This document shows positions 3,801-52,975 of a stretch of 58,513 nucleotides of DNA, in pieces; within the stretch, counting starts at the first letter, position 1; every line of letters starts with the position of its first letter. The notes below the pieces were generated by a model, which saw only the letters and a program-made list of their open reading frames with translations, searched no databases and was not told where the DNA came from. The stretch comes from Girardia tigrina. Lineage: Eukaryota. A program made the translations under genes and the position numbers. The stretch spans positions 30,119 through 88,631 of the forward strand of contig MQRK01216208.1 in assembly GCA_001938485.1 (NCBI GenBank), in the 5' to 3' direction.

Positions 3801-4577
3801 TAATAAATCGGAGTTAAACCTAGATTCAATGCTCAAGTTTAAATTGATTAGGTGTTATGAAAGAGAAGAAGTTATTCTATGTTAAATATCATAGGAAGAA
3901 AATAGCGAAGATGTTTATTTACAGTTTCATGGATGTTATGTGTCACCACATTCTCGGTTTTTTTGTGTGGAGTAATTTTGGCGATTTTTATAGTTTGGGA
4001 TTTTTCACATATTTTGATTTTTTGCATGTGAATTTTTCTCAATGAGAATTTGTGTAAATGGTTGAGAAAACTTTTTTTTAATATTTTTTGTGTGTGCTGA
4101 GCAATTTGAATCGTAAATGTTTGGAACTAACTTTGAGAAATTATTTTAGTTAATGTAAAAATTTTAATAATTATTATTTAAAAAAACATTCGTTTGTAAA
4201 TTTGCAGTGTATTTTCTTTACAAATTTTCTTGGACAAATTTTCCATTTCAAATGTCGAATATTTTTTCTGACTTGTTTAAATAATCATTTAGTGTACGAA
4301 GTCAACATTTCTTAAATAAAGCTTTCAAATTATCGTTTTAAATATTTGAAATAATTATTGATTATTTGTTTGCCACAGAATATTATTGTCGTGACAAACT
4401 GCTTTTTCGTTGCTTTTGCAAAAACTGATTGTCGTTTTCGGTTCTTTCATCGAATCGATCGCATCGAGTAAACAGACAAATAAAAATTGACACGATTTAA
4501 ATTTGATACGTGTATCCTTCTTTCATTATCATTCACCATAATACGATCTAATTTTCGCGGTTTTCTCCAACACAAAA

Positions 4578-4925
4578 ATGAACAAAATTCTTCTATTAAT
4601 CGCAATCGGCATAGCGATCTGCAACGCCAACGAGAACTCGGCCAAATTATTGGTGTCAAAATCGATAATCAATCCGTATTTGGTGAAAAAGAAAGACATA
4701 ATGATTCTCTATGAAACTTACGACATCGGATCGAGTACCGCATCAGATATCGAATTGAAGGATGAGAACTTCCCTCCGCAATATCTCGGATTCGTGATGG
4801 ACAGGCTGTCAAGGCGGTGGCCCCATCTGGCCCCGAGCAACAACCTGACCAGCGCCGCCGTCATCCGGCCGAACAGTGCCGGTTATTTCAACTTCACAGC
4901 GGCTTACGTGAGCTACAAGACGAAT
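4578..4925 (+). pseudogene. SSR2: Translocon-associated protein beta (TRAP-beta), intronless, 3'-truncated copy
   Basis: Signal peptide followed by AKLLVSKSIINPYLV...YDIGSSTASDIEL.D.NFP...W..LAPSNN....VIRP..AGYFNFTAAYVSY. Homology stops before the C-terminal TM segment, where hAT sequence begins. Confidence 0.85.
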
Positions 4926-4929
4926 ACTA

Positions 4930-6062
4930 CAATGGAGAATTTGGGTATTTGTGTTTCTTACTACAAATCTCTAGAGTACATCTCAAGGAAAAATTAACCC
5001 ACTGTCCTTCCCCTTCGGTTTGCAATCCACGTGATGAGCTTATTTATCCGCGATGCTCTCCACAATGTTAACTTCCTGAAAACATCCTTCCATATTTAGA
5101 AGGGTGTTGTATATCGTTACTGCGAGACTCAGTGGATTAGTGTATTCGATCGACTTACTGACTTGAAGAAGCATTTGTGCAAGCTCGATGGCTCAGATAA
5201 TCCTTCCGTGTTAAACAGCGTGGGCAATGTTATTGTGGCTCTATCTCCATTCATGGAAGACCTGAACCTGGCAAAAAAGCAGTAATTGGTCCTCTGTATA
5301 CAAAGCATTCTCCAATGTTGTAGCTATATGAGAAACGTCTTTTTTAAATAGATAGAACTTTTTTCCCGATTTCAAGCAATTCGTTGCCGACCGCAAATTC
5401 TATTCCGTTATTTCAATTCCGCGACGACTGTTACTATTTTTGGAACACAAAGTGAAGACCATCCCTGTGGATGAGGATGCAGTTAAAAGGTAATTAGTGT
5501 GCAGAAACTAATTCACTAATCATTGAGATCATCCCTATCTGATGATATTCTCTTTATTCGTTATAATCACGTGTATAAATATAATTTTTTCGGTTAACAG
5601 ACCTGTATGAATTATTGTATCAATCCTGATACAGTTATCACAAAACTGAATCACTAGTGACAGTCTTTCTTCCATGGCTTTTAAAACTGATTCATGAGTG
5701 AATGTTAAATGTGTTAAGTATGATTAAAAATAAATTTAAAATTAAATTTTAGTATATTTTTTGTTTACTTCATGTAAAATTTGAGGGCATAAACAGAAAC
5801 TGCTTCTGTTTTTATTATATATTCGCGTACCTTATTTAACAAATTATAAATAACATGTTCGTTTCTTAATAATTTGATTTTAACTTTGTTTGAGTCTCTA
5901 TTTTCATTGTATGTAAGTGTCATGTTCCTTATTTGTATGAATTTATAATGTTATATGAGTAGTTAATGAAATAGCCCGTAGCCAGTTGATCTGTGACCCG
6001 TGGCTCGTAAAGAAATGCCGTCGCCCGAGAAGAGCGCCCCGTCAGGTACGGGCCCCACCCTA
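4930..6062 (+). mobile_element. Degenerate hAT transposase remnant with right terminus
   Basis: Motifs FAIHVMSLFIRD (CxxH-like), YCETQWISVFD (TRWNS-like), IPVDEDAVKR (SEAAVER-like) and LRSSLSDDILFIRYN (dimerisation-domain end). A GC-rich subterminus ends ...CCCCACCCTA (TAGGG-type hAT end). Confidence 0.65.
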
Positions 6063-14566: not shown

Positions 14567-15150
14567 GTATTGGTAGAATTAACTTTTTTTATTTTGTATA
14601 AATTAATTATCAGAACTTTTATTGGTTGAAATCAATTCTAAACATTAAAAAAAGTACCAATCAAATTTATTTTTTTAAAATGTTAAATTACAAAAAAATA
14701 AGAATTACATTTGAAAATTTTAATATTACATTTGAAACATATTTTAAAGATTTGTCATATAAAATTGAATTATATTATTTTCCAATATTATGAATCAAAG
14801 AAAATACCAATCAGCCATCTGGGTAGGAGAGACACAATCCATTTTCCTCACAATATGCATTATTTTGTAAAAAGTAAATTAATTTAAATAAAAAATTGAA
14901 AATTATTAAAAAAAAATTATAAAATAAATAACAATATTTTTAATCAAAAATAGATTCTCTTGAAAAAGATTATAACAATGAATGTTCAAAATTAGATATG
15001 ATATATAATCAATATAACAACATAAATAATTTTATAAATACAATGTATAATTCCAAGAATAAATATTAAATATTATGATAATATACACATGATGAGTTAA
15101 TTAATTTTCATTTCGTTGATTGAAATTAAATTAATTTTGTTAGGATAAGA

Positions 15151-15188
<38 letters not shown>

Positions 15189-15220
15189 GAATAACAAACG
15201 CCATTTAAAAAGTTTTTTAT

Positions 15221-15262
15221 TTGTCAAAACATGTTTCGCAATTACGGCATCATCAGTTGTGA
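15221..15262 (-). ncRNA. Minimal type I hammerhead ribozyme (inverted pLTR copy)
   Basis: Reverse complement of 20499-20540: CAA-CTGATGA-TGCCGTAATTGC-GAAA-CATGTT-TTG. Confidence 0.8.
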
Positions 15263-15516
15263 AGTAAATTTCAGATTACAAGTCATTTATATGGCACATT
15301 GACTATTACGCAATTAATCTTTTTTTAATTAATATTAAAAGATTTTAATATGATTGGATAATTCACTTTGAACATTTAAGCATGGTTTTAAATGCTTTAT
15401 TAATAATGCCTCAGTGACTATCCTGTCATAATATGTGTCAAAATTTTTCTTCAAAACTGTAAATTCAGTTTCATAGTTAACTTTAATAATTTTAATTTTT
15501 TAATAATGAATGGTAC

Positions 15517-16094
15517 ATGCAAGTTGATGAAGTGGCAATGGGATCTCCATTAGCACTTTTATTGGCTTCAAAATTTCATCAAAGTTTGGAGAAAAAATTC
15601 AATTTTTTTGAAGGAAACTTGCCTTTATTTTACACTAGATATGTCGATGATATCTTCTTGATTTTTGAAAATAAAAACCATATAGATAATTTTTTACAAT
15701 TTATGAATCAACTTCATCCAAATATGAGATTTACCAGTGAAGTCGAATCAGGGGGCAAGATTTCATTTCTGGATGTATTAATTGAAAGAAAATCGAAGGG
15801 CTATGAAACTGAAGTATTTCGAAAGAGTACTGACACGGGTTTATACAATAATCCTATGAGTTTCTGTGATCCCAAGTACAATAAAAATANNNNNNNNNNN
15901 NNNNNNNNNNNNNNNNNNAATTTATCTTCTACGTATTGTGGTGTGGATAAGGGTATTGTTGATCTTAAAAGCAGGTTAGAAAATAATGGGTACAATAAAA
16001 ATTATTTAAATAATTTGATAAAAAATACAATTGACTCAGTTCTTGAAAAATCTAATAATAAAAATGAAAACATTATAAATAATGATAGTAGTAA
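15517..16094 (+). pseudogene. Penelope-type reverse transcriptase fragment
   Basis: QVDEVAMGSPL, YTRYVDDIFLIF, LHPNMRFTSEVE, ISFLDVLI, VFRKSTDTG. Confidence 0.9.
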
Positions 16095-17076
16095 TGTAAT
16101 TGTCGGGGTTATTTTTGGTGAACTTTAAATTTTTGATATATTTTAAAAATCATATTTATATTTTGGATGGATTAAAAATAATGTTCGACTAAATAAAATG
16201 AAATAATCTTTAAATAAAAAATTTAAGTTTATAGATAATATTTTTTACTAATTAAAATAAATAAGATTTTATAAAATATATTTTATAGGTAACATTTCTA
16301 CCAATTAAATTGNNNNNNNNNNNNNNNNNNNNNNNNNNNNNNNNNNNNNNNNNNNNNNNNNNTGAAATAATCTTTAAATAAAAAATTTAAGTTTATAGAT
16401 AATATTTTTTACTAATTAAAATAAATAAGATTTTATAAAATATATTTTATAGGTAACATTTCTACCAATTAAATTGAAATACTTTTTGTAAAAATTATAT
16501 TTCACAGATAGTATATTACTAATTAAAATGAAATAAGTTTTGTAAAAATTTTAGAGTAATGATAATATTTTAATTAAATTGAGACAAATTTTTATAAAAA
16601 TNNNNNNNNNNNNNNNNNNAATTAAAATATCATTTTCGAAGTTAAAGAATATTGTAAAGAAGATTTTGATATATTTTGTAACACTATTTAAAATAAAATT
16701 AGAATATTTATTGTACACGGAAAGTTTTATTAAAAACAAATAAATTTATAATTAATGAATCTCTATTAAATAATAATAAATTTAAATATTGCTAAATATT
16801 TTGTATTTTAAATTTCTAAGTTATTTTTGCAATTTTATTAAAAAACAAATTAAAAAAGAAATAATTTATATTCGAATGATTTAAAATAAAAAGAAATCAA
16901 AATTGAATAAAATAACATATTTATATTTATCGATATTATTATTTGTATTTAAAATTTTGAGATCTGGATTATGTAAATAAAATATTGTTTCTCCAAAATT
17001 TGTTTCAAAAATGAAAATTGTAATAGAAATAAAGTTTACAAAATTATGAATTCCAATTTTAATCACGAACCTTATA
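16095..17076 (-). mobile_element. AT-rich solo-LTR-like insertion inside Penelope
   Basis: TGTAA...TTATA ends with a 4-bp GTAA duplication; interrupts the Penelope ORF. Related copies at ~27095-27480 and ~57895-58270. Contains N gaps. Confidence 0.55.
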
Positions 17077-17301
17077 GTAATAAAAACAATAAATTTAAAA
17101 TTACCATTTTCTGAAGGCGCGTCTGATTTGAGGAAAGGTCTAATGAAAAAGGTTCCTTCGGGTTTTAATTTGCGGGTGATATTTATAACTAATAAACTAT
17201 CGTGATATTTCTCAAATAAATCAAAAACTCCATCGGGTGTCCAAGCTAATCTAGTATATCAATTTAAATGTCACAAGTGTGAATCCTTGTACATTAGAGA
17301 A

Positions 17302-20169
17302 TTTTGACTGCGACTCTGACCACGACTTAGTCCTGTTAACGATATGGATCACCAACAACAATAAGGTACTCAAGTTGGCGAATGATAGAAGAAAGAAAAG
17401 AAAAGGAATAATTGACAGATTCTCCTTGCAGAACAACAAAGTGGCCATCAGTTGTGACATAGGACAGGCTTGTCCGAATGTCGAGAGCTGGGATGATGTG
17501 GAGAAGGTCATTTTGAAGACCACAGAAAGATTCAGAAAGAAAAAAGTCAGAGGTGGCTACACGGACATCTAGAAGAGTTGAAACCACTACTGTAGGAGAA
17601 ATGGAAGTGAAGGAAAGAATACATTCAGAATAGAGGTGAAAGAACATATTCGACGTGGAAGACTGCAAGACTGAACACCTTGCGGCATCTCAGGAAATGG
17701 AAAAGAGAGAGGATTGAGGGAATTGGACAAGAAATAGAAGGAATTCTCAACAGAGAATGTATGGGCAAGACTTCTGAGTTATACACGGAGCTCAGAGTCC
17801 TTTGCAATAGTGAAACGAAATAATCTTCTCTCTATACTGTACAAAGCAGTGTGAAGGACGAAGTGTTAGCATAGCATTTCTCACATCTATTCAGGAAAAG
17901 CGAAAGAGAAAACAGAAAAATCGAACAGAGCCAAGCACTCGAAATAGACCACTCACAGGACGTAGAAGAAGTAGGTATTGCTATTGGACAACTAAAGAAC
18001 GGTATAGCTGCTGGAAGCAACGGTATCATTCCAGAGCTATATTAATGGGGCGGTCTCCAGTTGACTGAGAAGATATAGTAATGTTTCGTGGACAGAATTC
18101 GAGGAAAGAGCAGAATTCCCGGAGGCTTGGAAAATGGCGAAAGTCGTGATCCTATACAAAGGAAAGGGTTCCAAGAAGGAATTGAATAATTATAGAGACA
18201 TATTCCTACTTGATGTAGGAGGAAAGATCATGGCCCGAATCATTGCAAATAGATTACTGCCACATCTCGAAAGGATACTGGACGACTGGCAATTTGGTTT
18301 CAGACCAAACAGAAGCACAGCGCACGCGATTGGTATCTTACGAAAGATACAAGAAGAGGCCAGATATCGGAACATAAACGTATTTGCTATTTTTATCGAC
18401 TTTGAAAAGGCATTTGACAGTGTACCCAGCAAAGTTCTCTGGGATTGCCTTCAAGGAATTGGAATACAGGATCGGATGCTAAGTATCATCATGAAATTTC
18501 ATGAAGGTTTCACGGAAAGCATTGGAAAGGATAAATTCAGTATGGACAAAGGAGTCCGTCAGGGTTGCGTATTGGGTCCTCTACTATTCAACCTTGTCTT
18601 TGATCATGCAATTAAGACTGCGATCAAAGAAGGACTATCAGGTAGTGTGAAACTAAAATACAATTGGGAAGAGCTGACCGTGAACAGACTTGCTTATGCA
18701 GATGACCTGTGCTTGCTGGACGAGGACTATGGAAATGTCGAACGGAATCTCACGTGTCTCAACACTGTGTTCTTGAATATGGGGCTCAAAATCAACATTG
18801 GGAAAACAAAGATCCTGAATCTCAATGGAGCAAAGTACATTACGGCAAGAGACGAGCTGAATGCCGGAATAGAATGGGTGGACGAATTCTGCTACCTGGG
18901 ATCGATAATTGACAGTGGAGGAAGCTCAGGTACGGACATCAATGCCAGAATTCACAAAGGAGCAGCGAAATTACGGACGATCAGACCAGTGTTGAAGAAC
19001 AACAAATTGTATCTCCGGAATAAGAAGAACATAATTAACAGCTGTGTATTCCCTGTTGTTTACTACAGCTGTGAAAATTGGAGGACAAATGAAGTACACG
19101 TGAAAAAGCTGAAAGCATTTCACAATCTATGTACTCGGCAAACTTTGGGGATTTCGAAAGATATGGATGAGATATCAATTGGACTGCAAAGCCCAATGGA
19201 TATCATCGCGCGGAGAAAAATCGTACACAATACTGAGGTCGATTTAGGAGAATGCCCGGAGAACGTCAAGCAGATCAGTGGATGCGAACTCATCGGAGGA
19301 AAGAAGATCAGCGGTCGGAGAAAGCAACATCTGTTAGAATGTCTCAGACTAAATGCTCACTGACTCTTTGGAGCCGAGTACAGTTTCGGTGAATTTAAAA
19401 GAGACGTTATGCAGGAAAACTTACTGAACATGGATGGAAAGATCGAGAAAGTATTCCGACTGAAGAGAATCCAAAGAAACGGGGACGAGCAAACACTAAG
19501 ACTGGTGCTACCTCGTCTGATAGAACACAGCTGCCCGATGGATGCCTGTTACAAACAATATGCGGAAGTGAAAGAGTTAAACAGGCATCTCAGAAGAGAT
19601 CACGAAGGAGCAGAGCAAAACCCGCGGAAGAAGAGAGAGAAGAAAGCCCAGCCACGTCAGAAGAAAAGAAAATATCAATGTCAACATTGTCCGAGGGAAT
19701 ACAAGGCCGCTGGTTTCCTAAGGATTCATATTCAGAAGAATCATCAAGAAACGCCAACATCCAACACCCAGAGAGAAAACTTGGAAGAAGAGAACGAGGA
19801 AGAGCCGACATCAAACCAATCCAATCCTCAGTTGCCGGACGCAACGGTGAGTATGCCGAGGATACAGCCGAACGACGACGCCGAAGAGACGCACCTACAA
19901 TACCGATTGCAAGCCGATTACAAGACTGCAAAAGGACAATTTAAAGTGCCCATCTCGCGGTTGTTACGCGTCCACCGTAACAGCCAACGGCATGTACGGC
20001 CATGGTACCAAGTTCCATGGTTGGTCGTTCGTTACTGGCAAGCCGACTGCTCAGAGGCGAAAGGCCACTGACCCCGTAGGAGGCCTATCGGGGGGCCATT
20101 AAGAACTTTAGTTTGGGTGGACCCTCTAAAGAGCCTTAGGCTCAATACCATTACAGAGATTGGAGGCCC
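17302..20169 (+). mobile_element. 5'-truncated non-LTR retrotransposon (APE-RT, RTE-like) with C-terminal C2H2 zinc fingers
   Basis: Starts at the APE C-terminal DSDH motif. RT motifs QFGFR, FIDFEKAFDSV, GVRQGCVLGPLLF, LAYADDL, FCYLGS. 11-bp TSD ACATT(A/G)GAGAA at 17291-17301 and 20170-20180. Confidence 0.92.
18134..20137 (+). pseudogene. LINE ORF2: RT domain plus three C2H2 fingers
   Basis: ORF 18134-19363 continues in frame past a single TGA into 19409-. Fingers CPMDAC-x12-HLRRDH and CQHC-x12-HIQKNH, then after a 1-nt frameshift at ~19945, CPSRGC-x12-HGTKFH. Confidence 0.85.
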
Positions 20170-20498
20170 ACATTGGAGAAACAAATCGTCATCTCCGCAC
20201 TAGAATAGCTCCACACACCCAATTGAGTTGGAATAGCTCGATTCTAGATCACATTAAAAAATGCAGAAATAGAGATAAAGTTAACTATGAAACTGAATTT
20301 ACAGTTTTGAAGAAAAATTTTGACACTTATCATGAGAGGATAATCACTGAGGCATTATTAATAAAGCATTTAAAACCATGCTTAAATGTTCAAAGTGAAT
20401 TATCCAATCATATTAAAATCTTTTAATATTAATTTAAAAAATATTAATTGCGTAATAGTCAATGTGCCATATAAATGACTTGTAATCTGAAATTTACT

Positions 20499-20540
20499 TC
20501 ACAACTGATGATGCCGTAATTGCGAAACATGTTTTGACAA
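20499..20540 (+). ncRNA. Minimal type I hammerhead ribozyme in Penelope pLTR
   Basis: Core CTGATGA (20505-20511) ... GAAA (20524-20527). Palindromic stem III AAACATGTTT, cleavage triplet GUU, short stem I CAA/TTG. This architecture is known from Penelope-like elements. Confidence 0.82.
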
Positions 20541-20607
20541 ATAAAAACTTTTTAAATAGCGTTTGTTATTCATTTTTTTACAAATAAATTGCCATTAAAT
20601 CTTAATG

Positions 20608-20647
<40 letters not shown>

Positions 20648-23600
20648 NNNNNNNNNNNNNNNNNNNNNNNNNNNNNNNNNNNNNNNNNNNNNNNNNNTAT
20701 ATATATATATATATCCATATATATATATATATATATATATCCATATATATATTTATGCACATAAATGATCGTAAATATCATTACAAATGCTCCAGATGTA
20801 TCAATAGAAATACTGGGACGTTGTTTAAATATTCAAATTGTTTGTTTTAGTTTTTAAATAAATAAATTAATTGTTGTTATGTGTGATTCTACTTACAAAT
20901 AACTAAATTTGATTAAAAAAAGATCTAAAATTAAATATATAAGCAATTAAATATTATAATAGATGTACTACAATTATGTATTCACGTTGCTTTTTCCTTT
21001 GAAAGGATTGTAGTTCTAACTAATTATATTTATAAAGTTAAAAATTTAATAATTTAAAATGAGGATTTACATAATATTTTTTTATTGTAAAATTATTATA
21101 ATATTTTAGGATAATTAAAAGATTATTTAAATAATAGAAATTGGGGAAATGATCACTTGTTTAAGAAAAAACCGAATTTTTGTAATTTTTTGAATTAAAA
21201 AGATATTTATTGTGGTATTGATGAGTTCAAATATTGATATAACTAACAATAAATAAACGAAAAGATGAATTAAAAAATAATGATCGGGACTAATTCGGAT
21301 TATATTTTTAATTTATATAAAGTGAATATTTTATTATTAGTTTTAAAAACACTTAAAATGAATTTTCCTAATTACAAATTTGATAAATAGGTTAAAAATA
21401 TTTTTAAATTCCAATAAAATTTGATTTATTATAAAAATAAAAAAAATTTATAATTTTTTATTTTTTAAACAAACAAATTAGTGTAATTTATTAAAAATAT
21501 ACATTTTTAAAAAAAACAATGTTTAATTTTGTAAAATTATTTAAGTTTATTTTTTTGAAATTTAATTCTTATATTTTTCTAAAAATGAGAATAAATGAAA
21601 TTACTGAAATATAATGTTATAATAATAATTTAATATAAAATAACTTGATTTAATAATGGGTTAAAATTAATGAGTTAAAAACCAATTGACCTGATTGACT
21701 TTCGAAAATTGGATGTAAATATTCAGCATATTTTGGCAATGAACAATTCACTCAAAATTTTGTACGAATGAACTGTTCTTTGAGGCTTTTATAGAGAATA
21801 AATTTTTCTAAAATAAATATAAGGAAATTAACAGATCACTTTTTTATTTATTAACAATATGTGAATTTTCTTTGATCCAAGTATTTTTTTATGATGAACT
21901 CAAAGTTCTTTCAAATTTTTAAAAATAATTTTGAAACCACTAAAAATCAAATTAAGACTTTAAGTAAAAACCGTTTGAATCAATCTCTTCAATCCATCAA
22001 TTTACAAATTAGTAAAGTGCGGTAAGCATCCCCTGTTGTACTATTCTTTATTTTAGTCGGCAAATAACCCCTGATACCCCTTTTCGAGCTCACCTAGTTT
22101 CTTGAATTTCAAAGATAGTGAAACAGAAATGTAATAGTAGGAATCTAGCAAGGTCTGTACTATTAACTAGGTTTAGAAGAAGTTCGATGTCGTAAAGATT
22201 TTTTGTCTTGTTTTGAAAATAAAGTTATTGCGAGAGGGTTTGTTGTGTGTAACCGCGTCCGAAATACTGTTGACTTGATCGAATTTGACGCGTTCGTTAG
22301 CGACCAGATGACCGGCACCTAAATCGTACAACCAATTACACGATAAACGCTGATGTTCAACCTGATTTGTCCCGGATGTAATTTTAATCGACGTAACAGT
22401 CGATTTATTCGATGGCTCCATCCTTTGTAAGTGGTATTTAATGAGAACCAGAATTTTCGATAAACGTTTATTTATAAACGATGTAGTATCGAATTGATCC
22501 TCCATATTCCACCACTAAAAAATTGGTTTTGAAATTCGAATTTGTGCGTTTTGTTTATTTTTTTTAATTTATATAATAAAAAAAATTCTTTATGTTTGAA
22601 TTTTATGAGTTTTAATTTAATTTTGAATTTTTATTTTATTAATTTGTTAATTTAGTTTTTGAATTTTAAATAATTTTTAAATGTTGTGGAGTTGGCGTAT
22701 ATAACAGGCGTATATTTTAATAGTTGTTAACACGAATATGCCAACTACCAGAAGTCAGGATGGGGCGCGCCTCGAAATTGTTTAATCAGCACCGAATTAC
22801 CTTGGAGAGTGGTTTGATTGAGAACAAATATTTTGCAAACAGCAGAACTCGAAACATTTATTAATGCAGGAGTCAAAATAACATGACATATGTTTTCAGA
22901 AGAAATCCAGCGCTTTGCAGATGACTGTGCTAACCAATGATCAATAAATGCTTTACCATAATTGAAGTTGAAATACTTCCTACAGCGCTACAGTGGCGTA
23001 CTTTTGAAACTCATATCGTCTTCGGTAACACTCCTTCCTCCCAGCATGCCTCCTGAGAGGCTTGTTTTTTTATACAACTTGAGCGTTTCAGTCCATCGCA
23101 CGAGCACCTCATCTTAGATGGCCAACTCTGACATGATGATGGCAATGAATTGAAAGGGGACCTGCAAGTTGAATCCTCCTAATTTTAAGGTGGAATTCTT
23201 GTAGGTGAAAGAAAGACGAGAAATAAATCCAACCTTGATATTTATTCACAAAGTGACTTCGTTTCCAATTCTTTTTTTAAAAGTAACATGTGTTAAAGTG
23301 TTATGTAATATAAAACGTGTTGGACTGTTCGTAAAATGTTATGTGTCTGAAGATTTGTGTATTTTTTTCTTTTATATCTGAGAACACATGATAAAAAAAT
23401 GTTTGGAATAGGAAAATTCATTAAAAAACAAGGAAAAATAACTATTTTCATCCGAAATTAAAAGTTACCGAATTTCGGCACATGACCATTTCAGATTGCT
23501 TGTGCCCCACAGTGAAAATTTCTTAAAAAAGGCCTTGATGTGTGAGCCAAAACATGATTGATAAGAGAAAATTTATTAACTCGCTCTAATTGGCTGGTCC

Positions 23601-24455
23601 AATCAGAGCGACTTGTTGGCTCGATCGGTTTCCTCATTATAACAGTTTTTGAATTAGTAAAAGGACGTATTCTCAAAAATTTTTGGATATGCATGAAAAG
23701 GAAATTATTAGACCTAAGATTAAAAAGGATGAGATATGTTTATTTCATTATGATGAAATTTTGAAGTCTAAATGAGTCCGGCACACTAATTTTGAATCAT
23801 CATTACTGCAAATCTCAGCTACTGTCACCTGATCTACGAGGTAACCTGAGGATCTTGCGGAACAACCATCACATCCGCAAAATACAATAATTGGTCAATT
23901 CAAATATTCGATTTTTGTTCGCACATTTTCACAATAATACAAAATCTATTTAGAACCCCAAGATTTATATTCACACTCAACAACTTCCTCATTCATTTTC
24001 GCCAATTTATTCAATGATTGTTTATCTCTCAAATTTATTTCAATTATTTAAATTATTCAATTATTCACTTCCCTTTTTTATTTAACTATTATTTTTTAAG
24101 TTACCTTTAATTGCTTAATTTAAATATATAATTTTATATAATTTAATTACGAGCATGTTATTTCGGCAAATGTTTACTCAATCCTTTACTTTCCACTACA
24201 TTATATGTCATAAATATGTTTTTCACCTACTTTCCATGATCTGATTGAATTAAAATTTTGCCTAAACGTGAAATTTCAAAAACATTACATAAATCAATTA
24301 AAGACTTTATAATGATTAATTAATTCAAATGACTAATTAGTCCTTTTTTGAAAAAAAAACAAATTTGCGATAGTCATCCTATTATTGATATTTATAAATA
24401 AAATAGAAAACAAAATAAATTCAAGTTTTTGTTTTTTTATAGTTGTAAACGCTAT

Positions 24456-24650
24456 TGTAGTGACCTTCCTTATATTATATAAATATGAAAATTAAATATA
24501 AAAAATTTAAAAAATCGATTTAAATATAGATTGTTTTTATAATTGTAATTACAGTTTATTTGGAATAAATATTTATTATTGTTCTGTTGAATTTTTACTA
24601 AAAGGGGAGATATCCAAAGAAAAAAGAATCCTCCACAATTGGTGTCAGAA
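24456..24650 (+). mobile_element. Putative short LTR with tRNA-Leu primer-binding site
   Basis: TGTAG (24456) ... TCCACA (24637), with an internal TATATAAA and AATAAA. After a 2-nt spacer comes TGGTGTCAGAA, complementary to the 3' end of tRNA-Leu(CAA), ...UUCUGACACCA. LTR 5' boundary uncertain. Confidence 0.65.
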
Positions 24651-24661
24651 CAAAAGGGATT

Positions 24662-25380
24662 ATGTCTCCATCTAAAAAGAAAAAATCTTCGAAAATAAAT
24701 TTCCACCAGCAATTCCAGGAATTATTATTTATATATCAAGATCAACAAGAAAATATATCACGGCTAAATGAAAAATATAATTTTCTATCAAATACATAGG
24801 AAAAAATATTGTTCGATGTACAAAACAATGTTGATTACTCTTTATTAGCATTAAGAATTTCCAAAGCTAGAAATAAAGCGAAACATAATCAAATAAATCA
24901 GCTCAATTCCTTTTCTCACGTATCAATACCGAAAATTGGTACACTAATCCCAAACGGAATTTTTGTGGGCGGACTCACATCAAATACAACTGAGGACGAA
25001 TTAAAAATTTTCTTTTCGAGTTATGGTCCAATTAAATACGCAAATATAATAAATGATCGTACGGGAATATCAAAAAGAAGCTATGGATTTGTGACTTTTG
25101 AAAATCAAGAAATTGCTGAAAAACTCACAAGAATGAATCTGAAATATTGATCTTTAAAGAGAGAAAATTGAACATTAAATAAGCTGTAAGAAAGAAAAAA
25201 TTATATCCATATGCTTTGCAAAATGGATCAACTTTATGTCAGGTTCCTGTGCAACATTATTCAGCTTTAACATCGTTGTCTCCACAATATGCAACTATGA
25301 TGCTACCTCAACCGACTACAACCTCAGTATTAACCTCGCTCTGCTCTAGTATTCTCTCTTATCTTTTATATACTTTCGTT
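24662..25380 (+). pseudogene. boule: Intronless boule/DAZ-family RRM, in frame with an ~87-codon leader starting just after the PBS
   Basis: PKIGTLIPNGIFVGGL (RNP2) and RSYGFVTF (RNP1), then after a frameshift LIFKERKLNIK*AVRKK and a P/Q/Y-rich tail. ATG at 24662 is in frame with the RRM, with one TAG at 24797. Confidence 0.85.
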
Positions 25381-25407
25381 ATCAAATAATAATTATGTAG
25401 CAAATAA

Positions 25408-25884
<477 letters not shown>

Positions 25885-28455: not shown

Positions 28456-31400
28456 AAAGCCCCCCGTGAAGAAGTCGGAGACGGTGAGATGATTGTTATG
28501 GTTTTGTTGGACTGAGGCGGGTGGTATTGGATGATTGTATCCATAGAGAAAACCGAGCTGTTTTGTGTTTTTGGGTAAGAACGTGGGCTGTGTGTGTCTC
28601 GACTGGGTCGTCCTCAATGTGAATGCATGACTTCAGTTTGCATATATTAACTACGCGGTGTGTGCCGTTGTAGTTTATGGTCGCGGTGTTGTTCTGCATG
28701 TCCAGGTGAAGAATGTGGTATGAACCGGTGTATCGGGTTTGCAGAGAGCTGGGGTGTTCTCGAATTAGCTAGACGAATTTCGCGTTAATCAGGTCCTTGG
28801 TAACGTAAACCTTGTAGGTGTCTTGCGACGATGAGGAAGTATCTAAATTTTTGAAATAACTTCGTGCCTGTTCCAGGTGTTCATCGTTACTGGGGCTGTC
28901 ACTGAAGAATAATTCGTTCACAAGTGAAGTGTTTGAACCGAACAGCATTTGAGCCGGTGAGGAGCCGTGGCGGCTGCTGGGAATGTTGCTCCACCCGAGT
29001 AGAATGAGAGAAAGTTATTTGACCCAGTCCTTAGTTGCGGTCAAAGTCCTTAAGGAATTCTTGAGTGTATGATGAAACCTTTCAACGATGCCATTAGACT
29101 GCGGATGGAGCGCTGTTGTTTTTATTCGTTGTGTACCTAGTCTATTGAGAAGGTCGTTGAATATGTTGGATTCGAATTGACGTCCCTGGTCGGTTATGAG
29201 TCGTTTGGTAACGCCAAATCGTGCTATCCAGTTGTTAACGAAAATGTTGACGACTGACTCCGTAGTGATAGTTCACATCGGAAACGCTTCTGGCCAGCGT
29301 GTGTTCCTGTCAATGATAGTGAGAAGATAGGAGTATCCGTTGCATGTTGGTAAGGGACCGACAATGTCCATGTTTATGGTGTCAAAATGACTGACGGTTG
29401 AAAATTGAGTATTGGCGGTTTNNNNNNNNNGTTGCTTGGCATTGTAGGCAGCTTTTGCACCATAACTTGACATCTCGGTGCATGTATGGCCAGATGACCT
29501 TAGTGAGCAAGAGTTCGAAGGTCGCCTTGGAACCTGGATGTGCTAAGTTGTGAACTGCTTTGAATGCAACATAACTGAGGGCGGGGCCCAAACGGGATGT
29601 ATACATCCTGCGATGGGAGTGTCAAAGTAGATGTGATAACGTGCAGTTGGTCGTTTCCTGAAGATGGCCAGGTCCTTGTCCGAAAAGGGATTCTGTTCTA
29701 GTATCTCATGTGTGAATAGGGGTTCGAAATCCAACAACGCAAGTTCTATTCTCGAGAAACAATCGGCCAAAATATTGTCTGAGCCGGTGATAAATTTGAT
29801 GTCAGTATCAAATAGCGAGATGGAGCGAATCTGCCGCTGTTGACGTGGTGAAGGGCTCTTCATCTGGAAGATCTGTAGAAGCGGTTTGTGGTCGGTGAGT
29901 ATTGTCGAAGATCTGCCGATGAGTAGATGTTCGAAGTGTTTCACCGACAGAAATAGTCCCAAGAGCTCTCTATCGAAGGTTGAATATCTGGTCTGGGCAG
30001 GTGACAGCTTCTGGGAGTAGAATTCCAGTGACTCTGGTGTGTTTCCGTGTATTTGTGTCAAGACCGCTCCAATCGCGATGTTCGATGCATCAGTCGTCAA
30101 GGTTATTGGCAGTGCTCCTCTGGATATCTGAGTGTCGTGGAGTGTGCGATATCGTATTTAATCTGTTGAAATGCTTTGATGGCCTCATAAGACCAGGAAA
30201 GAGATTGTTTCTTTTGTCCAGAGGACATGTTGGTGAGTGAAGCAACTGTTGCGGATATATGTGGGATGAATCTGCGGCAATAATTGACCAGGCCAAGATA
30301 ACTGCGCATGGATGTGACTGTTTCCATTCGGGGAAACTCGGCTATGGCTTTGATTTGATCCGCTAAAGGACGGATGCCGTCGGCTGACAAAATGTGTCCT
30401 AGGAATGTGACCTGTGTCTGGAAGAATTTGCATTTCGGAAGTTTAGATTGAGCTGGTGCTCGTTGAGTCTGGTCAGTGTTTCAGACAGGTGCTGCTGGTG
30501 TGTGTCTTCGTCTGGTGTAGTTACGACGAAGTCGTCGACGTATGCTACTGTGTAGGACAGACCATGGAGCACGCTGTCGATGTGGCGCTGGAACGTCTGC
30601 GAGTCGTTGCGCAGGCTAAATGGCATTCTAAGATATTCGAAAAGGACAAATGGTGTGACAACGGCTGTTTTTGGAATTGATGCTTCGTTGACTGGTATTT
30701 GGTGATAAGTCTTGGCCAAATCGAGTGACGAGAAGATTTTGCATCCCGCAAAACGTTGCAAAATGTCGATGATTAATGGCAGGCGTCGTGACCTGGTTCA
30801 ACCCTCTGCAGTCCCCGCATATTTGGATGGAACCATCCTTCTTGGGCACGATCTGGAGCGGTGCTGCCCAGGGTGAACTGGAGCGTCGTACAATGCCCGA
30901 AGTTTCGAATTCAGAGAATTCTTTCTCGGCAAGAATTTGCCGTTCTTGACAAAGTTCCCGGCGATGTTGTCATATGGGTGCGCATGGCATGGTGATGATC
31001 ACGTAATTTGATATGCAACTACCCGAGAATGAGCTCACGGTGGGGTTACCAACGATGTTGGGAAAGTTAAGTAACTGATTGAGGTTAGACAACGACGTAC
31101 ACACTGGAGTGTTGGTTGGTGTGTGACGCGCCGTTGTTGATTGTGGAAGTGAAAGAAGTCTCCGGTTCCTGCAGTCTACTAGCAAACCGAAGTGGACGAA
31201 GAAATCTTCCCCGAGAATTGGTTGAGTGACATCGGCAACCGTGAACGTCTATTGGAAAAGGTTATCCAGTGGGGCAAGGTGAAATGACATGTTGACTGAA
31301 CCATAGGTATGAACGATTGAACCGTTGGCGGCCGTGAGACGTGAGACTGTGCGTCGAGTCTGTGGTTGCACAATTTTGGCAGGACCAAAATGGCGGAGCC

Positions 31401-32710
31401 CGTATCGATTAAAAATGTTAATCTGGTGGTGCGTGGAGCGGTGACAATTGCATCGCACACAAAAATTCCGCAGCATATGTCATCGTCTTCTGTGTCGGCT
31501 GCGAAGACCGAAAATGATCCTAGTTTTTTGACGGTTTATAAGTACAGCCAGGCGCGCATCGTTTCGCCTGATCCCCTAGGCGGGAGTGATAAACACAGAC
31601 TGTGTCCATTTCCAATCCGTTTGTTTGGTCCTTCCAGGTGCATTCTGGCAGGCATCTCTTTGCCTCGCGGCCGAACTTCGAATGAACCAACACACGTTTG
31701 CACTTAGTGATCGATTTCGGCTTGTTGCTGAACGTCTCTGATGGGATTCTCATGACCTCATTGTACTGAGTGCTGTTATTTGTGTTGTGATTGTTTGCAT
31801 TTGTGTCTGTAATGCCTCAATTTGTGTAGATAGTGTATCTGGTGCTGTGGTTGAGGTTGTTTGTGTCTGTTGTGTGTTCACAGCAAAGCATGTGTTTGAT
31901 TCGGTTGGTTGTGTGGCCATGATGTTGTCTGCAATTTTGACAAGTTCAGTTACATCGGTGACATTAGTGGCAGCAAGAACGGCTTGAGCCAGTGGTGTAA
32001 GTGACCGCAGAAAAAAACGCTTAAGTAGATCGGAATGAGATCCATTAGTGATTTCTGGGTGTATAGTTTCTAAGTCTGTCACGATCTTGTTTAAAAAGAA
32101 AGATGGTTTCTAGTGACCAATGTGTGTGATTTGAAGTATGTGGCGAAAATGTCATCGTGTGTGTGTTTCTCGTGTGTGCCGATCGTCGCTATGGGTGATG
32201 AAACAGATTGCAGAAGTTCGGGTGGAATAACACATAATGAATGATGGAACATGACGACTTGGCTCGTGTTTCGCTGAATGTGGAACCTCATTTCCAGAAT
32301 TCTTAACCAACTTTGTGGTGTTCCATCTTTGTCTAAAAAGTACGGTGGCGGTGTTGGTGGTAGTGAAATGGCGTTGATGTCTTGTAGCTGTGTCGTTGAG
32401 TTATTCATCACCCCGGTATAGAATCGTTAACGGTTATGTAGGACTGGTTCTCTATACCGTGGTCAAGCCATGTGAGCTGTAGACGCAGTGGTTTTATGTG
32501 CCAACAACCAGATTTGACAACCACGGATGTGTGATAATAAGATGGTGGTGTCGTGGATCGATGCTGTGACCGCCACAGATAATTCACATGTTCCCGATTT
32601 CATGCGTAAGAAAATATTTATGTGATCACTAACAGTTGGGAACGTGACGCCATGTGTGTTGTACGCAGAGACAAAGGTGTGGTAACATCTTTAGTCACTC
32701 AATCCCCCCC
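28058..32710 (-). mobile_element. Ty3/Gypsy LTR retrotransposon (decayed; gag-PR-RT-RH-IN, 3' LTR present)
   Basis: gag 32411-31520 with CxxHxxxGxxAxxC-type motifs; protease FLIDTGS (~31410); [22 protein letters not shown]; RNase H TTDASN..IGAVL, TDHKPL; integrase HPG, C..CQ, DIVGPLP, TDQGRQFES, GIVERFH. G-rich PPT, then LTR 28455-28058 (TGTGG...CTACA). Confidence 0.92.
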
Positions 32711-32839
32711 GAAAAATCAAAACATTCCATCATCTATAAAGATTTTTTAATATTAATATAATTATTAAAGGAATTATTATTGAAACAATTAGTAAAATAT
32801 TCATATAAAATATCGAAGACACAAATTCCGGATAATTTA

Positions 32840-33130
32840 TTCTTCAATGAAGAAATGCCAAAATCAATCGGACAAACCTGAAGAGCCATTGTGTCGGTAA
32901 TCGTCGCAAGTTTAGCGGTGGCTGTCGGTATCCGGAATCTCGGTAAATAGAGTTGAGGGTTGATTTGGTGGACCAGAATGCAGTTTCCAGATCGAAGGAA
33001 TTTATTTTGGCAACCTGGTTGTGTATCGGTGACGATTGTTGGCTCATATCGAGTCGTCGACATTGCTGAGGCGAAACAGATGAGTGTTGCGGTCGCCGGA
33101 ATCGGGTTCTTGATAACTTCTGACACCAAT
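32840..33130 (-). mobile_element. 5' fragment of another Gypsy element (PBS-Leu + gag start)
   Basis: TGGTGTCAGAAGT at 33128-33116, followed by gag-like VAKINSFDLETAFWST. Confidence 0.6.
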
Positions 33131-38069: not shown

Positions 38070-40510
38070 TGTTACATCTCGAGAGCCATCGAGAACCGGT
38101 ATTTTACCTGAGATATTTTCATGATGATATTTGCATATTCGTATTGCATGATCCGTCCTCTGTGATCACTCGGATACTCAGTTCCGGGTCACGGCCAACC
38201 ATTAGGCCAACATAACAATGTTGTAAGAAGTAAAAAATCCACTGCAACGGAATCTGCTCATCGATATGCCAATCCCAGCGAAGGCCACTGTCACATCGAC
38301 GAAAACTGAACGGTAGCGGAGAATGTAGTAGCCGGATATGGATCAAAAACAAAAAAAAATGACCGGATACGGAAAATCAAGACATTTACAATGATTGATC
38401 ATTTAAGTTCTCCAGTTGTCGGCTAATGTTTCCAACTGAGCAATAATAATAAAAGACATGATAACTGTTTCACTGTTTCTTTTTTTCTCATTATTTTAAT
38501 TGACCTAACTGATAATAACCATAATAATTTCGATAACAATATTAAATATTTCAATTGATTATGCTAAATACATGGATCAACTTAAATATAAATGGGAATG
38601 TAACAATTTGGAGGAACGTCCTACACACGCATACCACTAAAATCACACGCAAAATCAACACAGCAGTACACACAAAACAGCACACACGCATGTTTCACAA
38701 AAAATCACACTTCATCACACATCAAAGTCATAACAACTGTACACACGAAACAATACACAAAACTACTGACCACAGATAAAGCAATAATACACCAGCTCCG
38801 AAAGACTCACCATCATCACATACCCCAGACGCAAGGGAACCACCGATGAACAAACCGCACAATTTAAAGACAAACGCCAAAACATCAGCACTTTCATCAC
38901 CCTCCCATCACGTATCGATCACTGTTAGGGTGTCCCTTTCTTCCGAAAATGGCATACATTGCATCCACGGTTGGACATTTAAGTGAGAGCCTATGGACCA
39001 TAACTGGTACACAATTCTTCCTTACACACGGCTCCAAGACATTGTACGAAACTTTATCAAGGTCTTAATACGGTTTTACTGACGATATCACGCTGGACTA
39101 CACCATACTCTGCCTGGAGGCAGTGAGAACAAACCAGATTACGATCAAATCGGCACGAAAGATGCGAACGCACTGATTATCGCACCACCTAACTTTTTTG
39201 TTGACCAAGGGGGTTCTTTAAAAGTCTGGTTAGACCTGGTGGATTTCCGAGTCAAGGAAATGCTTCTTAACTCGCAGAGCAGCTTGTTCCAAAAACTTCT
39301 TTGCACCATTCCTGCAGAACAACTCGAGATGCTAGTACCACATCTGCGGCAATCATACAATACTTCGAACCGAATGATCAAGTTAGGCGACAAATTATGA
39401 TGGCTCATAAACCCAAATTTGATGTCGTCTCCAAAAACTTTTTTAAGACACAACAAATCGGCATACTGAAGTCCTCGATGAGTCATCGGTGACCTGTAGT
39501 TGATCCAGCCGGGGATCTCTCAGGACAAAAAACAGCGATTTTGAAGAAATTCTTCATCAAATCGTTGCCACTGATGCACAAGGCAATTCTTGCAGACACC
39601 AGTATCACCGTTCTGCAAGAGTTAGCAGCAATCGCCGACTGAATAGCTGAAATAATGCCTTCTAACGCATACTGGTACTTCAATCTTTCCACATTCGCCA
39701 TGGAATACTCAAATTCGGGATCAACCGGACAACAAAATATGGAAATCGAGGCACTCACAGCTCGCATAGCTCAGATGGCCACCATAATGTCTAATCTTAC
39801 ATTCACTATTGCATCGTTGAAAACGGGACGGGACAACCGACAGCGCGGCAGATCCAACAGTCGACACGAACATCGGAGGAACTCAATGAACCAGCAGACC
39901 TCACTCTGCCATTATCACTGCAAATTTGGCACCAAGGCTTTGAAAAGCCTACCCAGCTGAGAGTGGAAAGGCGACTATATGACACTCGAAATTATCGAGA
40001 CGTGCATTTGGCGCTTCAAATTCGACGAACTGACCAGATCATGCGCCCCTGGGTGCAAACATGCACCGTCAAATAATTAGTTTCACCTTCCATTAAAGTA
40101 GCTAATGGCAAGGACGAGGACAGTTGCTGTGGTCTATTTACTTATGGTACCCACATAAGAAATAGCACCATTTCACTGACGTCTTTCTCGGTAGACACTG
40201 AATCTGCCTTACCACGCCGATTCCAACCACAATGCACTTGACATACTTAGCAACTCACAGCTGCGAATGGCTCTAAAGTTTAAACATTTGGTAGATTCCA
40301 ACTATCCTTCTCCTTGAAATAATTCAACAGAACTTTCAACTGCACATTTTTAGTTGCTGAAGTCACTCCACCCATTCTAGGTTCCGACTTTTTCGATCAT
40401 ATCAACATCCTCTTCGATTGCAGAAACGGCAGACTGATCATTAACGATCGTATCTCTGACAGCCAACGTGCGACACAATCTCTCACCGGCATCTACGCAA
40501 TCTAGGAAAC
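38070..40510 (+). mobile_element. Ty3/Gypsy element, 5' part (sister of the 28058-32710 family)
   Basis: LTR TGTTAC (38070) ... GTAACA (38605); degenerate tRNA-Pro-like PBS TGGAGGAACGTCC; CA-rich leader; gag LKKFFIKSLP, LCHYHCKFGTKA; protease VDTESA, LTAANGS, PILGSDFF. Confidence 0.82.
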
Positions 40511-47249: not shown

Positions 47250-48526
47250 TTAGGTTGATGCAAAAGAAATGTCATTTTTAATGTATTTAATATTCATTGT
47301 TTGAAATATTTAGAAAATCAATAATAAATAGATTCATATTTAAATTTACTTTAAAGCTTAAACTTTACTGTATATTTTGATACCAAGTATGACATTATGG
47401 TTTTGTTAATTTAAGGTGTATTTATTTTATTTTAGAAATGTTAGAAAAAAAGGAAATGAGAACAATTTTATTCGAACTAGGTCGAAAAGCGACAGAAACG
47501 GCTCAGAATATTAACAACTTATTTGGAAAACATACCACTAAGTTACGAACAGTACGACGTTGGTTTTTTAAGTTTCGTAGTGAGAACTAGAGCCTTGAAA
47601 ATGAAAAACACGGTAGTCGACCATCACAAGTTGACGATGACCATTTGAAGAAGTTAATCAATGCTGACCCGCATACAAATTCAAGGGAAGTCACTCAAGA
47701 ACTGAACGTTCACCAATCAACAGTTGTTCGCCATCTGAAAAAAATCTGAAAAATAAAAAAAGCGGAACAAGTGGGTGACGCACGAATTAAACGAAAATCA
47801 AAAAAATCGTCGTTTTAACGTGTGTTCTTCTCTGCTTTTGCGTAATCAAAGCGACCCGTTTCTGGATCGAATTGTAACGTGCGATGAAAAATGGATACTA
47901 TACGACATTCGCCAAAGTTCAGCTCAGGGGTTGGATTTCAATGAGGCTCCAAAGCCTTTCCCGAAGAAAAAATTATACCAAAAAAGGTATGGTAACTGTT
48001 TGGTGGTCCTCACACGGTTTAATCCAATCCAGCTTCATAAAACAAAGCGAAACAATTACAGCGAAAAAGTATTGTGAGCAAATTGACAAAATGCACCAAG
48101 AACTACAAAAAAACGGCCAGCATTACTCAATAGAAAGGGGCCAATTCTTCTGCAAGACAACGCTCGTCCACATATTGCAAGAAAGACCATGCTGAAGTTC
48201 AACAAACTGGAATATGAAACTTTACCTCATCCACCGTACTCACCAGACCTTTCTCCTACAGACTATTACCTTTTCAAACATTTTAGCCAGTTCCTTTGCG
48301 AAAAATGCTTCACAAACCAAGGAGATGCTGAAAGAGCTTTGGACGATTTCATTGCCTCCAGAAGTCCAGAATTTTATGAATCTGAAATAACAAAACTTGT
48401 TACCCGTTGGCAACAGTGTGTTCAATGTAATGGTTTTTATTTTTACTAATAAAGTTAATTCTAAAGAAAGTGATGTTCATTTAAAGTTGACGGTTAAAAA
48501 ACGACATTTCTTTTGCATCAACCTAA
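47250..48526 (+). mobile_element. Full-length mariner (DD34D, cecropia/Hsmar1-like), inactivated
   Basis: TIRs TTAGGTTGATGCAAAAGAAATGTC / GACATTTCTTTTGCATCAACCTAA with TA TSD. Transposase 47438-48449 has WVTHEL, IVTCDEKWILYD, LQDNARPH and HPPYSPDLSPTDY, with several frameshifts. Confidence 0.96.
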
Positions 48527-51039: not shown

Positions 51040-52975
51040 TCATAAAATATGAAAATTAAGACCACCAACATGGGTTTTCGAACTTTTATTTTCAATACAA
51101 TTTGAATTGTCCTTTGGATAACTCTTAGCCCTGTTTTTGTAATTCGACATCGTTCTAAATTGATAAATTTTAGTTAATGTTTTTTTAATAAACAATTATT
51201 CGAACAAATTTTTCATTATTTTTAGATTTTATTTTTAAAGTTCAAATTTTTAAATTTTAGTAATAATTCTATCTACATCTTAATTTTATTTTAAAAATGA
51301 TTTTATTTAAAGAAAGAACATTTATTTAATTTAAAACTTAGTTAAAAGTCATTTACTTAATTTAAATTTTTAATATTAAAATTTGAAACAATTTGATATT
51401 TTTAAAGTTTTTTTAAATATCGTATGCTCTCTTTTAAAATGCAAATTATACTCGAATAATTATTTATCGCGAACATCTGAAATATCAATTTTCTATCAGG
51501 GAGGGAGAAACACATTTCCAAATATTAAACTCAACAAACAAAATTCAACATACCAATTTCAACATACCAAATTTAAAATATTCCTCACATCCCCTCGATT
51601 TAAATGGCTTTAGCCATTCCACATTTATGATCAATATTCTGCCATCATCTAATTGTATCTCGTAACTTCTTTCATGTCGTCGGATCTTTATTGTGGCTGG
51701 ACTCATATATTGATCCTCATCCTTCGTTACGTTTTCTTTCCTTATAAGCATTTTATCTCCGATTCGGAATACTCGTTTCGTTTGTGTCGTGTTTTTATTC
51801 ATTTCCTTCTCGACATGTCTTTTTCCCCCGGTGTTTTTCCACCAATGTCTTCGTTTCCTACCAAAAATTATTTCTGCTGGAGATATTGCTGTGGCTGCCT
51901 GAATTGTGCTATTTAAAATAAATTCTATTTCTTGCAGGATTTCCGTCCAATCTTTGTGGACCTCGACTTTCATCCGTATATTCATGGTATCCCTAATTGT
52001 TCTGAATTGTCTCTCAACAATCCCATTGGTATTGTGGTGGTAAGGACTGGAATATACTATCTCAGCTTTAAATCTATTCGCTGTTTCTTTAAAATGACCT
52101 GATTCGAATGTTTTTCCTCTATCTCTCGATCTCTTTTGGTGGTCCGTATTTCCAAATCCATTTGTCTAGTAATACCTTTCGTTCTGTTTTCTCGTCTTGA
52201 GGAGCTACTGCGTTCAAACTGATGTATCTGCTAAATTGATCGATTATCGCTAGTATGTATTGACATCCATTAATATTTCTTTTAATAGGTCCGCAGAAAT
52301 CCATATATATTTTTTGAATGGTTCATCAGCAGATTGTTTAATATGTTTCTCTTTTGTTTTTGTTGTTAGGGTCTTTCTTTTCTGACATTAATACAACTTT
52401 GCACAATTTCCTTTACCGTTTTTCTCATATCTTTCATATTGAAATGATCTTTCAAATAATTATAAACTTTCTTACTACCAGGGTGACACAGCATCTTGTG
52501 TATTTCTTCCACGAATTCAGTCCTTTTACCTTTCGGAATCCAGTATTTGTTATCCATTGTCGTTACGATATCATCTTTCAGTACCCATTTCTTTGTTTTC
52601 CCAGTTCTGATATCTGATCTAATCTGTTTTATCTCTTCATTATCTTTCTGCCATTTGAATCTTTTGGATTCATCGTCTAACGCTAGGATTCTTGTTTTAA
52701 CTTTACCCTTCTTAGCTTCCTCATGCATAGTTTGACATTGTACACACATTTCACAGGACTTTCTTGACATTGCATCGGCGTTAGAGTGTTTTTCCCCTTT
52801 CCGTCATTCCATTGTCATATCCAACCCCAATTATACTCGAATAATTATTCATCGTGAACATCTAAAATATCAATTTTCCATCTGGGTGGGAGAAACACAT
52901 TTCCAAATATTAAACTCAACATTATAAAATTCAACATACCAATTTCAACATACCAAATTTAAAATATTCCTCACA
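51040..52975 (-). mobile_element. Internally deleted Gypsy element: partial 5' LTR, RNase H end, integrase, PPT, 3' LTR
   Basis: 52975-52828 matches the LTR starting at 51589. Motifs KHSNADAMSR, HKMLCHPG, MDFCGP, LAIIDQFSRY, SPYHHNTNGIVERQF, ISPAEIIFG. PPT GAGGGGA before TGTGAGG. Confidence 0.88.

Follow-up and report, generated by a model that had tools for sequence, protein, structure and literature searches.

Does the Boule RRM that follows an LTR-like end in this stretch of Girardia tigrina DNA belong to a retrotransposon, or is it a retrocopy that lies beside an LTR? An earlier note, made from the 58,513 nucleotides of the stretch (the window), had proposed the former, and its LTR end, 2-nt spacer, PBS and ATG were all located where it had put them when the sequence was checked. 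The 5' LTR is of lineage Ia type, is 182 bp long (24456..24637, + strand) with the ends TGTAG..CCACA, and is 97% identical to the 3' LTR of the full copy L004. Its ends are of the TG..CA form, and other copies have paired LTRs. After the spacer, 11 of the 18 nt of a tRNA-Leu(CAG) PBS are left in the window copy (24640..24650, +), and the fusion ORF opens with an ATG at 24662 (+). The element-derived leader (24662..24928, +) is absent from host boule and is predicted to form a long helix. It was expected to be an in-frame leader of 87 codons with one TAG; the frame and the TAG (24797-24799, +, in the window copy) are as expected, and the measured length is 89 codons. Without a change of frame, again as the note had claimed, the leader enters a spliced boule cDNA containing the RRM and the P/Q/Y region (24929..25335, +), which corresponds to nt 106-557 of the host CDS and is 84.7% identical to the donor. 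A profile search matched this intronless RRM to Pfam RRM_1 with an E value of 2.6e-17. The best protein matches of the Boule part are trematode boule proteins (56-59% at the amino acid level), and the top fold matches of the RRM are to the mouse Dazl RRM.

The copy in the window is decayed. Two stops, one frameshift and the lack of a 3' LTR had been listed and are all present, ie besides the leader TAG there is a one-base loss near 25127 and a TAA at 25180-25182, the copy is truncated at its 3' end near 25335, and neither a 3' LTR nor a TSD was found within the window. The list had omitted a 45-nt deletion after 25205. The window is AT-rich. The copy is located in a 10.9-kb intron of a receptor guanylyl cyclase gene (14567..25426, +, GT/AG ends); positions 31-109 of the Guanylate_cyc profile precede the intron and positions 110-142 come after it. 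It is on the same strand as the cyclase gene and near the 3' end of the intron, about 90 bp short of the splice acceptor. The same intron contains a pair of 281-bp inverted arms (97%) at 15205-20556. Between the arms are frames that resemble RT (15496-16128) and GIY-YIG (20130-20426), Penelope-like by eye, as well as a LINE RT at 18065-19363 (Pfam E 8e-33). The second PBS that the note had seen ahead of a gag is an exact match on the minus strand (33118..33128), upstream of a gypsy gag, and it heads a decayed autonomous-type gypsy element with a CHCC knuckle (about 28496-33128, -) which is separate from the present finding. Between them, 28496-33128 (-), 39083-39960 (+), 47757-48449 (+) and 51545-52803 (-) hold decayed gypsy elements of CHCC type, a mariner-like transposase and a further gypsy integrase fragment. 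An intronless TRAP-beta frame at 4542-4997 (Pfam E 2.6e-28) and, by eye, a histone H2B-like fragment on the minus strand at 790-1041 are possible further retrocopies.

The window copy is one decayed member of a high-copy, non-autonomous family of Ty3/gypsy elements. The genome searched comprises 1.43 Gb. A DNA search with a 1051-bp query gave 771 candidates, and scoring of the best 40 yielded at least 46 matches; the RRM as query gave 601 candidates, and the best 150 yielded at least 151 matches. A further search returned 394 candidates, and all of the best 40, which were scored, matched. These candidates should not be equated with copy numbers, as some contigs duplicate others. The matches are above chance and the family is multi-copy, with well over a hundred copies. 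By a motif rule, both LTRs and the PBS are present in 31 of 87 distinct loci. The TSD is perfect (5/5 bp) in 21 of the 31, 4/5 in five and three or fewer in the other five, some of the poor scores being due to mis-called boundaries. The two LTRs of a copy are nearly identical (median 98.2%). The elements are 1.7-2.05 kb in length, with TG..CA LTRs of approximately 165-185 bp, a PPT and a 5-bp TSD. A single ORF contains, in order, a helical leader of about 90 aa, boule codons 36-336 and an integrase C-terminal module (assigned in the atlas to MLVIN_C, 0.92). The intact ORF that the note had hoped to see among the copies is found in L087, at 541 aa, and in L074, at about 460 aa. The frame in these two stays open from its ATG up to a point shortly ahead of the PPT; one of the 20 gap-free copies in the census is unbroken, and L074 is additional to these.

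tRNA-Leu(CAG) genes in the same genome have a 3' end to which the PBS is complementary. All 18 nt are retained in lineage II, and in several derivatives the match extends further into the tRNA sequence, as expected if the primer was copied. Trees of the leader, the RRM and the downstream parts disagree, which indicates that the lineages recombine. In a set of tiny derivatives (L172, L177, L181, L184, L189 and L197) a fresh primer site of 18 nt or longer is joined to internal, tail or foreign integrase sequence, and some of these are terminated by an inverted LTR.

The intron-containing parental gene that the note had called for was found in the genome. The donor boule gene (G000:C226319) has 11 exons, encodes 430 aa, and all its introns are of the GT..AG type; it was located by a splice-donor pattern, an earlier acceptor pattern having given no gene. 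A second, intron-containing boule paralogue (G000:C218924:40700-58500; L101, L103-L105) has introns at the same positions and was rejected as the donor, being too diverged from the element. The captured span is host codons 36-336, and the copies are 80-85% identical to the donor. The host N- and C-termini are missing, and the first 35 host codons are unrelated to the leader. At the eight exon junctions covered, the exons abut cleanly in 87/92, 90/97, 96/98, 96/99, 97/102, 93/98, 72/97 and 22/28 copies, respectively. The 5' junction falls at host nt 103-110 in 91 of the 94 copies that reach it. The old lineages have their 3' junction at host nt 1007; lineage II contains deletions, and in lineage I the 3' part is different from about codon 297. 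Motif tallies indicate that RNP1, RNP2 and the conserved extension, all features of a Boule-type RRM, are kept; most copies have a change at G119. Divergence from the host at four-fold sites is 0.25-0.32, which, compared with the near-identical LTR pairs, implies an old capture, recent insertions and long continuous replication.

The same data address the second half of the opening question, ie whether a one-off LINE retrocopy has landed beside a solo LTR or, alternatively, whether the leader and PBS-like tract are simply the native 5' end of boule. Taken alone, the window copy would fit a one-off event, as it has no 3' LTR or TSD of its own. More than 150 RRM matches and the two-LTR copies with different TSDs do not fit it. 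Nor does the junction, which is common to nearly all copies reaching it, many of them with two LTRs and TSDs. The donor gene begins with another N-terminus and lacks the PBS-leader, no poly(A) was found in the element copies, and the boule segment is fused in frame at both ends. Virtually no weight can be given to either version of this explanation, and the note was right that the locus is not a plain LINE-made retrocopy.

The note had further proposed that Boule occupies the Gag position. This is borne out in a narrower sense: the ORF is Gag-like but has no capsid, and Boule is found where the zinc knuckle (nucleocapsid) would be. The leader itself matches no Gag. The profile comparison suggested for it was made with sister N-termini, the window Gag and the Gags of two helpers, and gave no match (Probab 3% or less). 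There was no match to the leader in the atlas, and no Gag Pfam domain or capsid was detected in the Boule-family ORF; the first codons alone of the leader resemble a cargo-less sister. A 41-residue helix is predicted at residues 14-54 (sister copy, pLDDT about 80) with a heptad moment at p 0.006-0.008, and prediction of a three-copy complex of the leader gave 0.20 and 0.04.

The slot was identified by comparison with related elements. A search with the tail found cargo-less sisters that have the same PBS and tail, and encode MPPxK, a helix, a CX2HX9CX3C knuckle, a low-complexity region and the tail. A 1.84-kb family, reached via the database protein P0089 (at least 137 matches, 30 loci read), has the same leader (93-97% nt), and its in-frame join to the knuckle is situated 9 nt ahead of the boule junction. 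The leaders of this family cluster with the young leaders of lineage II, and in one copy the knuckle body is behind another N-terminus. The leader-plus-knuckle family may be a later recombinant rather than the pre-capture state; an old-type leader on a pre-capture element was not found among the sister loci examined. Whichever origin this family had, the RRM and the knuckle occupy one slot. Several cargo-less families (L119-L122, L132, L143, L151, L157, L158, L162; L267-L296) have one ORF of approximately 450-505 aa, consisting of a helix, a CHCC knuckle, low complexity and an integrase tail with no capsid, an architecture that looks undescribed.

The tail corresponds to the second of two tandem GPY-type integrase modules at the C-terminus of Pol in an autonomous gypsy family (L249-L251, L235, P0093; hhalign 99.1%, E 4.8e-19), and it was this second module that seeded the tails of the non-autonomous families. 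That family is 5.8-6.4 kb long, has LTRs that are 98.8-99.8% identical, and uses the same PBS. A second autonomous family, of CHCC type and also with the same PBS, is the source of an integrase fragment inside a family-type LTR, and both are candidate helpers. Apparent open frames of 1200-1600 aa among the tail matches were rejected as autonomous elements; they were runs of N.

The note had also suggested a test of selection among copies. Singleton variants were used as the baseline, since dead copies mutate neutrally and variants found in many copies have passed through replication. The main test covered 111 of 123 loci, 12 being left out as duplicates or too short; the loci were picked by similarity and not randomly. 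In a first test, with 76 copies in four groups, the differences between lineages in the RRM were 15N/26S against 182/70 (omega 0.22, p 2e-5), and those in the rest of the ORF were 58.5/19.5 against 307/74, which is not significant. When RRM variants in at least 5 copies were compared with singletons the values were 33N/34S against 185.5/55.5 (omega 0.29, p 2.9e-5). At the same threshold, omega was 0.31 for the leader (p 1.4e-4, 84 copies) and 0.43 for the P/Q/Y region (p 0.014), and the lineage I linker and tail were under no significant constraint. The S/T-rich region drifts freely, with omega about 1, yet it contains no shared stops. Over all variants in at least 5 copies no stops were seen, against 24.6 expected. 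The four boule indels found in at least 4 copies are all multiples of three, compared with 31 of 159 private ones, and in-frame deletions of 72, 21, 18 and 6 nt occur outside the RRM only. Each of two A7 runs has slipped by one base in 10-11 scattered copies.

A polarised test, restricted to changes unique to one of four lineages and polarised by the host, guards against counting changes from time spent as a host gene. It gave 5N/10S for the RRM (omega 0.15, p 7e-4). Dropping one lineage each time gave p values of 0.003, 0.061, 0.002 and 0.0003, the 0.061 being obtained without lineage II (3N/4S); the polarised P/Q/Y region was not significant (p 0.11). The aromatic residues of RNP1 and RNP2 are kept (F47 in 86/89, Y87 in 90/94 and F89 in 94/99 copies). 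At host G119, K or R is present in 87 of about 96 copies, and lineage I has R at G85. The net charge of the RRM, +3 in the host, is +3.0 to +8.7 in the lineages, an uneven rise and a weak one. With an RRM omega of about 0.15-0.3 over the tests, purifying selection has acted on the leader and RRM in the lineages that amplified; the RRM signal is good, if not beyond doubt.

Boule kept under purifying selection in the knuckle slot suggests that the element uses it on its own RNA. We therefore favour an element-serving role, in which the Boule RRM probably does for the encoded protein the RNA binding otherwise done by the zinc knuckle of Gag. On the template-switch model (PMC5131818), boule mRNA would have been co-packaged in a helper particle in a germ cell, and a double template switch would have replaced the knuckle region with a boule segment. 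Copying in trans would be carried out by a gypsy element with a CHCC Gag and the same primer. The protein would bind the RNA of its own element in cis, and aid its entry to helper particles or ribosomes in germ cells. Copies which kept the frame and a working RRM would replicate better, provided that the protein acts on its own RNA or particle. LINE-1 ORF1p has a basic start, a long helix, an RRM and a C-terminal domain in that order; the layout of the Boule ORF is alike, here with a Boule RRM and an integrase-derived tail, and no homology is implied. More tentatively, and more likely wrong than right, a translational regulator of the host germline might have taken the place of the nucleocapsid knuckle, and the helix-RRM-integrase-tail protein might have reached an ORF1p-like layout by convergence, combining RNA binding in cis, helper loading and possibly a germline translation switch. 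The RRM and the knuckle would then be cassettes exchanged among parasites of one gypsy clade that recombine as a network.

Two other explanations of the constraint have to be weighed. Boule could be a passive, foldable filler, selection being for one open frame from PBS to PPT, by which the RNA avoids decay or the leader and tail are delivered, and the low omega of the RRM could reflect folding stability or occasional re-copying from host mRNA. The S/T-rich region, free to drift but without shared stops, fits such a filler, and the knuckle-bearing sisters amplify well without Boule. This explanation would also be consistent with the mosaic lineages, in which template switching is frequent, and with the divergence between lineages I and II (20-23%), which are as distant from each other as from the host (17-20% each); the worst-case polarised test of the RRM also leaves room for it. 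However, one 5' junction is used across lineages and one 3' junction by the old ones, deletions are tolerated outside the RRM only, and the RNP1 and RNP2 aromatics are kept, so we consider this explanation unlikely. The protein or RNA could instead act on the host germline, either as a Boule mimic or dominant negative that shifts translation in germ cells to the benefit of the element, or as a source of piRNA against host boule. Planarian boule is described as germline-restricted and needed for germ cells (PMC4858218), and apoptosis-regulator domains are reported in planarian Burro elements (PMC6431247). Both the RRM and the P/Q/Y region have been retained, and the copies are still close to host boule in sequence. 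Against this, the RRM and the knuckle are exchanged at one point downstream of a common leader, which fits a role internal to the element, the changes at G119 and G85 are a drift away from the host motif, and the host termini are missing. An effect on the host is accordingly improbable as the reason for retention.

The capture of mRNA by LTR elements is known. LTR-mediated retrocopies are described by a template-switch model in which partial spliced mRNA is inserted between LTRs (Tan et al. 2016, PMC5131818). By its intron-containing parent, its LTRs, PBS, PPT and TSD, and its secondary retroposition, the Boule family can be classed with them; as in the cases presented there, spliced partial mRNA replaces an internal ORF, in sense and in frame, and is re-retroposed non-autonomously. 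The retrocopies in that account are mostly young (<1% diverged) or decaying, whereas several lineages, with candidate copies in the hundreds, go back to the Boule chimera, which differs in its divergence of 25-32% from the donor at four-fold sites, its in-frame element sequence at both ends and its purifying selection. The CX2HX9CX3C knuckle is given as a Gag signature of CsRn1-like elements such as PwRn1 and AgCR (PMC2582038). The sisters and helpers have this CHCC knuckle, and a GPY/F integrase tail is present in the Boule family too. The same source gives a tRNA-Trp primer and a 4-bp TSD for the CsRn1 clade, in contrast to tRNA-Leu(CAG) and 5 bp here, and the Boule family, unlike that clade, is without knuckle, capsid, protease, RT and integrase core. 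It is thus best termed CsRn1-like, its primer, TSD and lack of a knuckle placing it apart from CsRn1 members. Two LTRs, one ORF of about 500 aa and, probably, mobilisation in trans are shared with TR-GAG elements (PMC8704663). These are described as plant elements that encode Gag; the Boule ORF has no detected capsid, ends in an integrase module and includes a host-derived RNA-binding part, and in lacking a capsid it is not a TR-GAG. Planarian Burro (PMC6431247) and maize Bs1 (in PMC5131818) are likewise LTR elements with host-like regulatory domains in an ORF. Burro is presented as giant and autonomous, with domains added; the Boule element is 2 kb, its host domain replaces a core Gag module, and the donor is known.

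Searches of the open-access literature, covering listings and the openings of abstracts, brought up no boule-carrying LTR family; repeat libraries and supplements to genome papers may list one unnamed. Nor did they bring up a family that has persisted for long under selection and at high copy number with a host-derived RRM in place of the nucleocapsid knuckle, and it is copy number, age, selection and the position of the RRM that set this family apart from described cases. Gene capture by animal LTR elements is usually viewed as giving young, rare chimeras or sequence from which host genes may be built. The present case runs the other way, in that the element has retained a domain of a host germline protein under selection through long amplification, and the donor, the knuckle-bearing sisters and the candidate helpers are all within one genome. 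It can therefore be tested whether the cargo serves the transposon, whether an RRM can do the job of a nucleocapsid, and whether hundreds of boule-like copies disturb, via protein or piRNA, the boule gene on which planarian germ cells depend. On the practical side, the copies will confound annotation, read mapping and RNAi of boule in Girardia tigrina.

Expression of the element is no more than suggested. It is covered by contigs from four runs, with shares of 0.15-0.46, and those of two runs bridge the junction of leader and RRM, in runs that were guessed to be RNA. GUU-type motifs, which Boule/DAZ proteins bind in 3' UTRs to regulate translation, showed no enrichment in 5 of 5 LTRs (p 0.07-0.81). 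At L087:1269, within the RRM, contigs from two different studies pass from the element into foreign sequence; the base at which they do so and the foreign sequence are identical, and this join is possibly a host-element chimeric transcript.
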